Shown in pieces: positions 1,977-5,531 of a DNA stretch of 64,000 bases. A model generated the notes under the pieces. It did no database searches and was not told the DNA's origin. It worked only from the letters and a program-made list of their open reading frames with translations. The stretch's first letter is position 1. Each line of letters opens with the position of its first letter. A program made the translations under genes and the position numbers. The DNA comes from Escherichia phage phiEc_1: sequence record LC768462.1; one strand, given 5' to 3'.

Positions 1977-2729
1977 TTATACACGAGAAGTGCGAATACC
2001 ATAAATATCAGGCAAGCTGCTCTGAAGTCGAGTCATGTTATTCGGAATTGCGATAGGTGAACCTGAGTACTCTTGTTTCTTATTCTGTTCTACCATTTCA
2101 TCAAGGATAGCTTTCCCTAATGCTGACCATTTCTGAACACCATTATCATCTTGAACAAAGAGACAAGCATGACGTAGGGTGAAGTACAGAAGAAGTTCTG
2201 GTGCTATAGTAAGAATAGTACTAGTATCTGTATCTTCATGGAATTCCGGTGGGTCTGCATAATAGCTAAGAATCACTGAGTTTTCTGCTGGAATCAAAGG
2301 GCTTCCATCATCAGGGTAGTACGGAGTATCTGCTTCGATGCTAGGGTAGAAAATGAAACGACTACCGAAACGAGCAAAGTTGACAGGTTGGTTATTCCAG
2401 TGAGATGGGTTAATTGTTCCATGCTGTCTACGATAGCTAATCTCTTCAGGAGAGGTTACTTGGAAGATTGTGCCATCTTTGGCTCTCATCATCCATTGAG
2501 CTTCTAAGTAATCAGGAGGAATGTAAGCTACTCCATCTTTAATATCTAAATACACTTCTTTTTCCAGAGGAGGAATACGTAAGTTACGATAAATCTCTTT
2601 CTCTGCAAAGTTAATAAAGTTTGGAATTTGATTAACAAATTCGTCATCGTCCCTATCTGCCCAGAGGGCCACGGCCTTCTTTAGCCACCCATAGGTATTG
2701 ATGGGGTATTGAACATCTGGCATTGCCAT
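1977..2729 (-). CDS. virion-associated protein, function unknown
   Basis: 250-aa ORF with AAGGAGG SD, between capsid and tail fiber genes; no recognisable motif. Confidence 0.55.
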   Translation of the reverse strand: MAMPDVQYPINTYGWLKKAVALWADRDDDEFVNQIPNFINFAEKEIYRNLRIPPLEKEVYLDIKDGVAYIPPDYLEAQWMMRAKDGTIFQVTSPEEISYRRQHGTINPSHWNNQPVNFARFGSRFIFYPSIEADTPYYPDDGSPLIPAENSVILSYYADPPEFHEDTDTSTILTIAPELLLYFTLRHACLFVQDDNGVQKWSALGKAILDEMVEQNKKQEYSGSPIAIPNNMTRLQSSLPDIYGIRTSRV

Positions 2730-2762
2730 AGGTTGTCCTCCTTGTTATATGTAGACAAAGAA

Positions 2763-2771
2763 TATACATTA
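2763..2771 (-). promoter_or_regulatory. TAATGTATA motif (candidate phage-specific promoter element)
   Basis: exact 9-mer on minus strand 33 nt upstream of ATG at 2729, downstream of a terminator. Confidence 0.4.
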
Positions 2772-2799
2772 CACACTGGCTTGTATAGGTCTTAAAACG

Positions 2800-2823
2800 A
2801 AAAAACCCCGCCCGAAGGCAGGG
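2800..2823 (-). terminator. intrinsic terminator after capsid/Ig-like ORF
   Basis: minus-strand hairpin CCCUGCC-UUCG-GGCGGGG followed by U6. Confidence 0.6.
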
Positions 2824-2830
2824 TCTAGTT

Positions 2831-3343
2831 TTAAGCAGGTGTTACACCAGTAAAAGTGCATGTTGCATTGATGGATGGGTCAGCTGTCAAACTTGCTTGA
2901 ACAGTAACTTCGCCACTTGCAGCAGCATCTAAGGTTAACGCACCAGCGGCGCTTACTGTACCAGCTTCTGTAGGGGTTACAACAAACGTGTAATCCGCAG
3001 CAGTAGAATTAGTTACAGTAAACATGGTAGTGAAGTTAGTGGAAGAACCACCAGTTTTACCCGTAATTGGACCCTTAGCTACAATAGTAGGAGCAGGAGC
3101 AACAATTTCAGAAATGGTTGCTGTACCAGAAACACCTTCTAAAGTTGCAGTAATGGATACATCAGTGGATTGAGACGCACTCGGAGCAGTATACAAACCA
3201 GACTGAGTGATAGAACCACCTCCTGTCACTGACCAAGTAAAGCCAGTTGTTTCGGTAGAACCATCACTTTTCTCCGCGCTTGCAGTGAACTGCCGAGTAG
3301 CCCCTGTCTCTAGACTTGCTAAAGACGCAGGGCTAACAGTCAC
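2831..3343 (-). CDS. Ig-like (Big_2-type) domain, probably a C-terminal extension of the capsid protein via -1 frameshift
   Basis: S/T-rich Ig-like sequence (FTWSVTGGGSITQSGLYTAPS...TATI); frame open upstream into capsid 3' end; no SD before GTG 3343. Confidence 0.6.
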   Translation of the reverse strand: MTVSPASLASLETGATRQFTASAEKSDGSTETTGFTWSVTGGGSITQSGLYTAPSASQSTDVSITATLEGVSGTATISEIVAPAPTIVAKGPITGKTGGSSTNFTTMFTVTNSTAADYTFVVTPTEAGTVSAAGALTLDAAASGEVTVQASLTADPSINATCTFTGVTPA

Positions 3344-3354
3344 ACTGTCTACTG

Positions 3355-4413
3355 TTACGCCGCCACCTTTCCCGCGGCAGTGAACAGAACGCCGGAAGCG
3401 TACGGGTTGCGGTGACGCAGACCAACTTCCATTTCAATCATCCACTTCTCGTAAGAACCGTCTTTAGCCAGTTCAGTGCGTTTCGGAGCACGCAGAACCA
3501 TCTGAGTCCAGTCAGCGCTACGGAAGAAGTAAACTGCATCGGTAGGCATCCAACGGTTAACGATGATTTTGTAGCTCTGGCCCAGCGGGTCAGTGATGCT
3601 GTTAACTTCGTAGATGAACTGCTTGGTGTTCTCAAAGATACGCTTACGTGAACCCTGAGTATTTTCTTGCAGACCAGCGAAGATCTTAGCATGAGCCGGG
3701 TTAATCATGATGATATCTGCTTCAGAACCAGCGGTATACAGTTGCAGAGTCATATCAAAGATATCAGCTTCGTCAAAACCAATGTTAGTGGTCGGGTTAG
3801 AAGCATTCTGTGCAACTTTAACAGTTACTGCACCAGTATCCGGGTCAGCAGGACCATTCTTGGTCTTGTCAACAACGCCACCAGCAAGACCACCGTGAGC
3901 ACACAGGAACTGGAATGCACCAGTCTTACGAGCTGCATGAGTGTCGTTCAGACCAACAGTTGCAGGATCAGTTGCAGAGTTAGTCAGGTACTGATCAGCC
4001 AGAACGTCGGTACGAGCCTGACCGGACAGAAGGATTTTCTCGAGGTCACGCTTGATCTCTTTACCTTTCTTCTCCAGCTGATACATCAGTTCACGACCAC
4101 GACCGTAGTTAGCGGTGGTGTTAGCAGTATCAGAAACACGAACAACCTTACGCAGAATCTGAGTAACGTTAGATTTGATAATAGTCGGTTTCATTTCGCC
4201 GTCTTCAGCACGAGAGCCTTCGACGTGTGCGTTATTACCGTCAACGCTTGCCAGTGCATCGGTCTGCCAGCTAAAGATAGTCTGGTTGATAGACTCTTTA
4301 CCGGTCATAGATACGAACGGGGTATCCTGAGGGGACAGAACAGAAATCCAGTTAGCAAAAGAAAGTTTTTTACCATTCTGGTCATACGATACAAATAAAG
4401 TTGGATTAGCCAT
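3355..4413 (-). CDS. major capsid protein
   Basis: 352-aa ORF directly downstream of scaffold gene; strong SD; position and size typical. Confidence 0.8.
   Translation of the reverse strand: MANPTLFVSYDQNGKKLSFANWISVLSPQDTPFVSMTGKESINQTIFSWQTDALASVDGNNAHVEGSRAEDGEMKPTIIKSNVTQILRKVVRVSDTANTTANYGRGRELMYQLEKKGKEIKRDLEKILLSGQARTDVLADQYLTNSATDPATVGLNDTHAARKTGAFQFLCAHGGLAGGVVDKTKNGPADPDTGAVTVKVAQNASNPTTNIGFDEADIFDMTLQLYTAGSEADIIMINPAHAKIFAGLQENTQGSRKRIFENTKQFIYEVNSITDPLGQSYKIIVNRWMPTDAVYFFRSADWTQMVLRAPKRTELAKDGSYEKWMIEMEVGLRHRNPYASGVLFTAAGKVAA
3367..3373 (-). other. candidate -1 slippery heptamer G_GGA_AAG
   Basis: X_XXY_YYZ heptamer in capsid frame 6 codons before its stop; -1 frame continues into Ig-like ORF. 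Confidence 0.45.
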
Positions 4414-4454
4414 GTTATGTTAGCTCCTATACTATTAATAATTTAATTTGTCGA

Positions 4455-5531
4455 TTAATCTACGAGGAATTTGAATGCGTCTTCGTGACTAACGCGACCC
4501 TCTGCGAATGCCTTGGCAACCTTAGCGTTGTCGGGCTTATTGGAAGTGCGAGACTTTGCAGCATCAGACTTCACAACCTTGCGTGGAGCACCGGGACGTT
4601 TAATCTTAGCCATCACCTGTTGCTTACCTTTATCAAATTGGTATGCTTTGTGGAGAGCTAGGAAAATAGACGGACGGTTTTCCTTCAATACTTCTTCTTC
4701 AGTAGCACCTAAGTCAATTGCGTATTGCATTAAGTTTTGATATAAGTTTTCATCCCAATTTGGAATCTCACGTTTCAGAATATTAACACATTCAATACTC
4801 TTGGCTTGGAAAGCTTCCTGCTCTTTAGCTGCTGCTTCCTGCTTAATACGGACCTGAGCCTGTTCAAGCTGTTGACGGCGAGCTGTGTACTTCTCTAGGA
4901 AACGTTTGTTTTCAACATATGCTTGAGGATCTTCTACTGCAAGCTTGTCCCAATCAAAACCGTTATAATCTTCAATTACTCGGTCTGCTTCTAAAGACGC
5001 TAGTTCTAATACATCCTTCAAACCTACTACACGTTCCTCGAATGCTTCCATATGACGCTGAAGAGTTGATTCTCGTTCTGTCATATCAGCACCAGTAAGA
5101 TAGCCATTAGAAAGTTCTTCAATAGTCATCTCACGTCCATCAGGAAGGGTGATAACGGTTTCGTAGTCTACATCAAAGACTTCACCTTCACCGTCAGCAG
5201 AATCATCTTCATACTCTGCATCGCTTGAATCTTCTTCCTCTTGTTCTTCTGCTTCAGAGGATTCGTCTTCATCTTCTTCGACTTCGCCTTCCTCTTCACG
5301 ATCTTCCCAACCATCTTCATCTTCGAACTTAAGCTCATCGCTTTCACCGAGAAGGTCGGTATCAAAGTCGAAATCGTCACCGTCTTTTTCCGGGAACTCA
5401 TCGTCAATGTCCACTTCTGGTTCTTGTTCAGATTCTAATCGACCGAGTTCTTCTTTGAAAGAACCTTTCAGGTCATCCAGTTGGAGGAAAGATTTAAAAT
5501 CGTTCGGGTCAATATAATTATCTTGTGGCAT
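4455..5531 (-). CDS. scaffolding protein
   Basis: very acidic, coiled-coil rich, between portal and capsid genes. Confidence 0.65.
   Translation of the reverse strand: MPQDNYIDPNDFKSFLQLDDLKGSFKEELGRLESEQEPEVDIDDEFPEKDGDDFDFDTDLLGESDELKFEDEDGWEDREEEGEVEEDEDESSEAEEQEEEDSSDAEYEDDSADGEGEVFDVDYETVITLPDGREMTIEELSNGYLTGADMTERESTLQRHMEAFEERVVGLKDVLELASLEADRVIEDYNGFDWDKLAVEDPQAYVENKRFLEKYTARRQQLEQAQVRIKQEAAAKEQEAFQAKSIECVNILKREIPNWDENLYQNLMQYAIDLGATEEEVLKENRPSIFLALHKAYQFDKGKQQVMAKIKRPGAPRKVVKSDAAKSRTSNKPDNAKVAKAFAEGRVSHEDAFKFLVD

Follow-up and report, generated by a model that had tools for sequence, protein, structure and literature searches.

In phages T7 and T3, ribosomes that shift into the -1 frame only a few codons ahead of the end of the capsid gene 10A make a minor, longer isoform, 10B, that co-assembles with the short capsid protein; the T7 slippery site is G_GUU_UUC, and the extension that it adds is about 53 amino acids (aa) long. 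For the tail assembly chaperones G and G-T of phage lambda, a -1 shift at the heptamer G_GGA_AAG gives a low-percent fusion product, as reportedly described by Levin et al. in 1993 and Xu et al. in 2004. Domains of the Big_2 and I-set types, which are immunoglobulin-like (Ig-like), are said to be added C-terminally to capsid or tail proteins by frameshift and displayed on virions, reportedly according to a survey by Fraser et al. in 2006. Slippage rates are given as about 10% for T7 10A/10B (cited in PMC7881722 and PMC9965538) and about 3.5% for lambda G-T (quoted in PMC9965538). Here, we examine a locus of this kind in a 64,000-nucleotide (nt) stretch of Escherichia phage phiEc_1 (LC768462.1), referred to throughout in its whole length as the window, in which an earlier note had proposed that a -1 frameshift fuses the major capsid protein to an Ig-like domain.

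The frameshift has already been published for the phiEco32-like group of phages and is not new. Mirzaei et al. (2014) described a 'potential ribosomal slippage (GGGAAAG)' that fuses the major head gene of phage SU10 to the Ig-like coding sequence (CDS) CDS10 'as in phage phiEco32' (PMC4281155). For phage Privateer the same signal was reported together with two capsid bands and detection of the long form in virions by mass spectrometry (MS), and the frameshifted product was stated to have been observed in both phiEco32 and SU10 (PMC7881722). According to the paper on phage YF01, both the heptamer and an extended isoform are general to Kuravirus-like phages (PMC9965538).

By nucleotide identity the window is a phiEco32-like Kuravirus, one more isolate of a known group: its nearest relatives, Escherichia phages KM01 and MN03, share 99.8% identity with it over 2700..4500 (minus strand), and phiEco32 shares 98.4%; in all, 125 phage records match this region, mainly of Kuravirus-like coliphages. 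Phages phiEco32, SU10 and YF01 have the same gene (93-99% protein identity), and they share both the position of GGGAAAG and the Ig-like extension. Nothing material separates the window from its Kuravirus-like relatives. It has GCC instead of GCT one codon before the site, and its extension is the short form of 178 aa, as against 372 aa in EP335 and about 540 aa in YF01 and Paul.

The locus works like T7 10A/10B but is not a member of that system, and the likeness to T7 drawn in the earlier note holds as a functional analogy. The capsid families differ, the window protein matching SU10_MCP only in Pfam and no T7 family; the slippery heptamers are different (G_GGA_AAG against G_GUU_UUC), and the T7 extension is much shorter. 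Lambda shares the identical heptamer, the direction of the shift and the low yield of fusion product; unlike in the window, the products are tail assembly chaperones and not capsid proteins of the virion, and the part added by the shift is no Ig domain. Privateer, a Proteus phage (Grimontviridae, Privateervirus), has a homologous capsid protein (57% identity), the identical heptamer and a -1 Ig extension, as in the window, but its heptamer runs directly into the stop codon (G_GGA_AAG_TAA), its extension pairs I-set with Big_2 in place of two Big_2-like domains, and the RNA on either side is of unrelated sequence. The window is one instance of the Ig additions of the type reportedly surveyed by Fraser et al., with no difference in kind.

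The slippery heptamer and the -1 frame extension

The elements of the proposed fusion are as follows.

3355..4413, minus strand: major capsid protein gene from the list of open reading frames (ORFs); short (0-frame) product of 352 aa and 38.7 kDa, HK97 fold
3373..3367, minus strand: slippery heptamer G_GGA_AAG, in X_XXY_YYZ register with the capsid 0 frame
2831..3367, minus strand: -1 frame extension of 178 codons plus stop (2833..2831), with a GGG linker and then what appear to be two tandem Big_2-like domains

The capsid protein matches Pfam SU10_MCP (PF17236; E=2.8e-76; 257 bits against a cut-off of 24.1) and PHROG 1328, major head protein, and its residues 1-350 are 99% identical to the solved SU10 capsid chain, PDB 7z45_A. 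Read directly, the 0 frame ends GTT CTG TTC ACT GCC GCG GGA AAG GTG GCG GCG TAA. The heptamer is thus read in register at 3373..3367, where the earlier note had placed it, six codons before the stop: the GCG that gives its first G lies 6 codons ahead of the capsid stop, and GGA lies 5 codons ahead. A -1 slip at this point yields ...FTAAGK-GGGVTVDSVTVSPASL..., that is, ...FTAAGK-GGGVTVDSV..., and the translation agrees with the junction predicted from the first reading; it continues for 178 codons and gives a fusion of 527 aa and 55.7 kDa, against an earlier estimate of about 55 kDa. Predicted junction peptides of this fusion are TAAGKGGGVTVDSV... after chymotryptic digestion and TAAGKGGGVTVDSVTVSPASL after chymotryptic or Glu-C digestion.

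GGGAAAG is not enriched in the window (11 copies against 7.2 expected), and a count so near to expectation means that the motif by itself is no evidence. The capsid gene has no in-frame XXXYYYZ other than the heptamer at 3373..3367, and of its 26 Gly codons only the one in this heptamer is GGA. The window contains 68 ORFs of 100 aa or more, 4 of which have an in-frame XXXYYYZ within their last 15 codons; the capsid gene is the only one of these with a long -1 ORF after the heptamer (178 aa), the -1 ORFs of the other three spanning 18-19 aa. The heptamer alone is not significant, but its combination with the long -1 ORF is.

The extension corresponds to PHROG 13745, 'Ig domain containing protein' (E=1.3e-80), and the 'Ig-like ORF' of the databases (2831..3343) is its 3' portion. 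Scored whole against Pfam Big_2 (PF02368) it reaches 24.7 bits, a marginal pass of the 22.8 cut-off, and its halves scored singly reach 18.8 and 17.9 bits, both below threshold. These matches suggest two tandem Big_2-like domains (about residues 4-90 and 95-178) after the GGG linker. The second domain is repeated in the 372-aa extension of EP335, and Ig profiles also clearly match extensions of other relatives (I-set and Big_2 in Privateer; Big_2 in Salmonella phage 7-11). A single-sequence AlphaFold model of the extension is all-beta and unreliable, with a predicted local distance difference test (pLDDT) score of 52.

Codon choice at the site has a further feature. GCG accounts for 3 of the 36 Ala codons of the capsid gene, and all three lie at the slip site, where the frames overlap (codons 347, 351 and 352; 3351-3368, minus strand). 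Codon 347 gives the first G of the heptamer, and codons 351-352 follow from the Gly linker of the -1 frame, which is written in its preferred codons GGT GGC GGC. The GCG cluster is a visible signature of dual coding.

Conservation among relatives

For comparison, 25 related loci were fetched. Those from the Gordonclarkvirinae (Kuravirus, Nieuwekanaalvirus and Suseptimavirus), which include phiEco32, KM01, ShigP1, IME267, EP335, KBNP1711 and several IMG/VR contigs, have 93-99% capsid identity to the window; the Privateervirus clade, with Privateer and vB_CsaP_009, has 57%. The heptamer is invariant in 13 related loci, Privateervirus included. All Gordonclarkvirinae fetched have GGGAAAG in frame 5-6 codons ahead of the capsid stop, with a -1 extension of 178-372 aa, and in the Privateervirus clade the identical heptamer stands directly before the stop and is followed by an extension of 169 aa. 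Synonymous sites flanking the heptamer are variable while the heptamer is constant; as judged from these alignments, it is conserved beyond the amino-acid requirement.

This pattern also bears on how the frame is changed. Slippage of RNA polymerase during transcription, rather than of the ribosome, would give the same fusion, and the short G and A runs at the site are compatible with it in a way that is not specific. The runs are only 3 nt long (GGG, AAA), however, and known cases of transcriptional slippage depend on homopolymers of about 7 nt or longer. Two divergent clades keep the heptamer in exact X_XXY_YYZ register with the 0 frame, a feature relevant only to tRNA re-pairing, and we regard a transcriptional origin of the shift as exceedingly improbable. 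Readthrough of the capsid stop codon was also considered and is impossible, the extension being in the -1 frame.

A supposed start at GTG 3343

Annotators have taken a GTG codon as the start of the Ig-like gene.

3341..3343, minus strand: GTG taken as the Ig-like gene start; without a Shine-Dalgarno (SD) motif and not conserved

If this were a true start, the Ig-like ORF would be independent of the heptamer, which would then be incidental, and re-initiation at GTG 3343 after the capsid TAA (3357..3355) would produce a free 170-aa protein that decorates the head non-covalently. The GTG sits 11 nt past the capsid stop in this phage, two separate CDSs are annotated in most GenBank records, and the authors of the cryo-electron microscopy (cryo-EM) structure of SU10 took gp10 as a possible separate minor capsid protein. 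Against these points, no SD-like motif is found in the 20 nt ahead of GTG 3343 (GCGGCGTAACAGTAGACAGT), as the first reading of the sequence had also remarked. The -1 frame is open from 3433 (after a stop at 3436..3434), 30 codons 5' of the GTG, and overlaps about the last 25 capsid codons; the frame had correctly been described as open upstream, and the count of 26 capsid codons given with that description becomes about 25. One predicted tryptic peptide of the fusion, GGGVTVDSVTVSPASLASLETGATR, has its first 8 residues encoded upstream of GTG 3343.

GTG 3343 is replaced by GTA or ATA in four of the loci (L012, L013, L022 and L023), in which translation of the extension could begin no earlier than its codon 33 or 46, and Privateer-type phages have no possible start for 60 codons; these late first starts lie within the Ig domain. 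Between the heptamer and the GTG, the encoded peptide G(G/S)GVTVD(S/T)(V/I)TVSP is nevertheless conserved and stop-free in the relatives compared. Since the GTG is lost while the upstream -1 peptide is conserved, independent initiation is ruled out as a general mechanism. The invariance of the heptamer down to relatives with 57% identity and the use of the rare GGA there only likewise count against an independent gene, as does the condition of SU10 described below, and we consider such a gene very improbable in this phage. GTG 3343 is probably an internal Val codon rather than a start, and by the comparative evidence the extension is translated from the heptamer.

SU10, a probable natural disconnection

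The SU10 record (KM044272.1; L003:1428-1575) contains a 1-nt insertion 24 nt past the heptamer (GACACTGTCTACTG vs GACAGTGTGACTG). In this record the -1 frame ends after 11 codons, with the Ig domain shifted into the 0 frame and preceded there by two stops; in the window the -1 frame is intact. The premature -1 stop has been pointed out before, and an extended capsid band was not seen in SU10 (PMC9965538). Its cryo-EM structure has 715 uniform capsid subunits, from which Ig density is absent (PMC9509320). With only the link broken, SU10 thus shows neither Ig density nor band, which argues against an independently translated decoration protein, and the disconnection fits an Ig domain that reaches the capsid solely as a fusion. 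In the published MS of SU10, the '9+10' entry has a coverage of 50.29% of about 528 aa (about 266 aa), against 78.1% of 352 aa (about 275 aa) for the capsid part (figures from PMC4281155).

SU10 is viable with its extension disconnected and its capsid uniform, and the heptamer is absent from Vibrio phage Vp_R1 and Aeromonas phage LAh_6. Both observations would suit a signal that is real by descent in phiEc_1 but dispensable or vestigial, the long isoform being negligible or not incorporated and without a role, as in SU10. We think this very improbable. All other group members fetched have an intact -1 ORF whose protein sequence is conserved, and in some of them it has undergone modular expansion, to 372 aa in EP335 and to a total of 892 aa in YF01 (PMC9965538). 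Salmonella phage 7-11 and Cronobacter phage GAP52, furthermore, reach the same end with a second capsid paralog that bears Ig domains. The conservation and expansion of the extension, together with this paralog route, argue for selection on Ig display.

RNA structures at the slip site

Two candidate cis-elements were found in the RNA around the heptamer.

3387..3352, minus strand: hairpin of 36 nt and 13 base pairs (bp) with the heptamer as its apical loop; folding free energy -16.8 kcal/mol, z -3.4 against shuffles; candidate cis-element
3361..3331, minus strand: alternative hairpin of 10 bp that starts 5 nt 3' of the heptamer; folding free energy -11.1 kcal/mol, z -1.2; candidate downstream stimulator

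Among 7610 windows of equal length taken over the structural genes, the hairpin at 3387..3352 falls in the top 0.22%. It is retained in the RNAalifold consensus of 10 relatives (the set used for all RNA structure alignments; mean identity 91%), with one-sided changes only. Its inner stem has been noted before, as a stem-loop around the SU10 site (PMC4281155). Privateer has an analogous hairpin that encloses the heptamer, with unrelated arm sequences, in the top 1.2%. In the hairpin at 3361..3331, 98.9% of cells are paired across the relatives, and 8 of the 10 pairs never vary. The two hairpins are mutually exclusive because GGCGUAACAG(U) is common to both.

No covariation was found in the stems of either hairpin among the 10 relatives, all of which are compatible with both structures; the lack of compensatory changes is accounted for by most pairs being invariant and by the region coding in two frames. 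A further downstream helix, which starts about 27 nt from the site, has two compensatory pairs. The fold of the 111-nt region as a whole has a z of -2.0 in the window and of -0.2 to -1.4 in relatives, and direct reading found no SD-like motif upstream near the heptamer. Not every known -1 frameshift site needs a stimulator.

After the 5' arm of the first hairpin enters the ribosome, its 3' arm can refold into the hairpin at 3361..3331. We consider it unlikely that the two structures form a conserved RNA switch in which ribosomal unwinding of the first hairpin lets the stimulator form during translation and thereby controls how much long capsid protein is made relative to the short form. If true, such a switch would have a cis-element architecture that is not characterised for frameshifts in phage capsid genes.

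Proposed mechanism

We consider it very likely that a programmed -1 ribosomal frameshift fusing the capsid protein to the Ig-like extension operates in this phage. The fusion proposed in the earlier note is supported by conservation of the heptamer, by the unconserved GTG, by the Big_2 and PHROG matches of the extension and by the literature. Most ribosomes would read through to the TAA and release the 352-aa HK97-fold capsid protein. In a minority, the P-site tRNA-Gly (on GGA) and the A-site tRNA-Lys (on AAG) would slip back one base onto GGG AAA, and the slipped ribosomes would continue via the Gly-Gly-Gly linker into about 175 residues predicted to form two Big_2-like Ig domains. The resulting 527-aa (55.7 kDa) long isoform would co-assemble with the short form, and we infer its incorporation into the virions of this phage. 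The outcome would be sub-stoichiometric Ig-like domains outside the prolate head, where the HK97-type fold and the C-terminal fusion point lead one to expect them. By analogy with the lambda G-T heptamer, the slip rate may be a few percent, which would place the long form at about 30-70 of 715 subunits. The Ig domains presumably serve for weak adhesion to cell-surface or mucosal carbohydrates, as is supposed of phage Ig-like domains generally.

Several points weigh against a programmed frameshift at this locus, or against parts of the scheme. Detection of the long form at the protein level comes from relatives and not from this phage. The phiEco32 proteomics result, reportedly that of Savalia in 2008, reaches us through two citing papers, and the MS claim for SU10 is weak, coverage of the '9+10' entry being no more than peptides of the capsid part would give. 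The candidate stimulatory hairpin downstream of the site has a z of only -1.2 and no covariation. The model of the extension is poor, and its two-Ig architecture is deduced from matches to sequence profiles, of which one is marginal. With the GTG so close behind the capsid stop, some independent re-initiation may also occur in this phage.

Gene order and transcript end

The genes of the minus strand are ordered terminase, portal, scaffold, capsid, Ig-like ORF, terminator and adaptor. Two signals flank the capsid gene and its extension.

4428..4424, minus strand: capsid ribosome-binding site, AGGAG
2826..2803, minus strand: intrinsic terminator from the terminator scan, with a 10-bp stem, a TTCG loop and a T-run; ends the capsid/extension transcript

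The terminator is the UUCG hairpin that had been noted after the Ig-like ORF. The scan found no terminator between the capsid stop and the extension, and the SU10 record has a terminator annotated at the equivalent place.

Other routes to a long capsid protein

Salmonella 7-11 (L007:1982-4758) and Cronobacter GAP52 (L009:2992-5129) have a homologous SU10_MCP capsid protein in short and long, Ig-bearing forms, like the window. Unlike the window, they make the long form from a complete second paralog of the capsid gene with Big_2 in frame, without the heptamer or a frameshift. The contig IMGVR_UViG_3300033688_000038 (L021:3-4433) likewise lacks the heptamer and has a second full-length capsid paralog with in-frame Big_2; it contains four tandem capsid paralogs in all. 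As read from these loci, the paralog route is an alternative genetic way to a pair of short and long capsid proteins.

Escherichia phage PJNS034 (PP391266.1; L010:3885-4286), whose capsid protein is 42% identical to that of the window, has C_CCA_AAA in the capsid frame, 3 codons ahead of the stop. Beyond it the -1 frame continues for 132 aa with I-set/Ig_2-type and Big_2-like sequence, and about 23 nt downstream there is a 10-bp hairpin. All that the record gives here is a separate and shorter 'hypothetical protein' (3972-4289). From its sequence, PJNS034 probably has an unannotated capsid -1 frameshift that uses a different heptamer.

Annotation and implications

In most GenBank/RefSeq records, including those of KM01, MN03, phiEco32, ShigP1 and IME267, the extension is entered as a separate gene from the non-conserved GTG, under product names such as 'Ig domain containing protein', 'hypothetical protein' or a second 'major head protein'. 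A joined CDS is present only for Privateer, in its RefSeq record, and this form, with ribosomal slippage, is the correct one for the extension. As a discovery the finding carries little weight, since the frameshift is already published for the phage group.

SU10 provides the reference structure for the genus, yet by its sequence record it is a natural mutant without the extension, and its solved capsid is atypical and does not represent the typical Ig-decorated head. Kuraviruses are used in phage therapy and in food-safety cocktails, and surface Ig-like domains may affect their adherence to mucus and cell surfaces.

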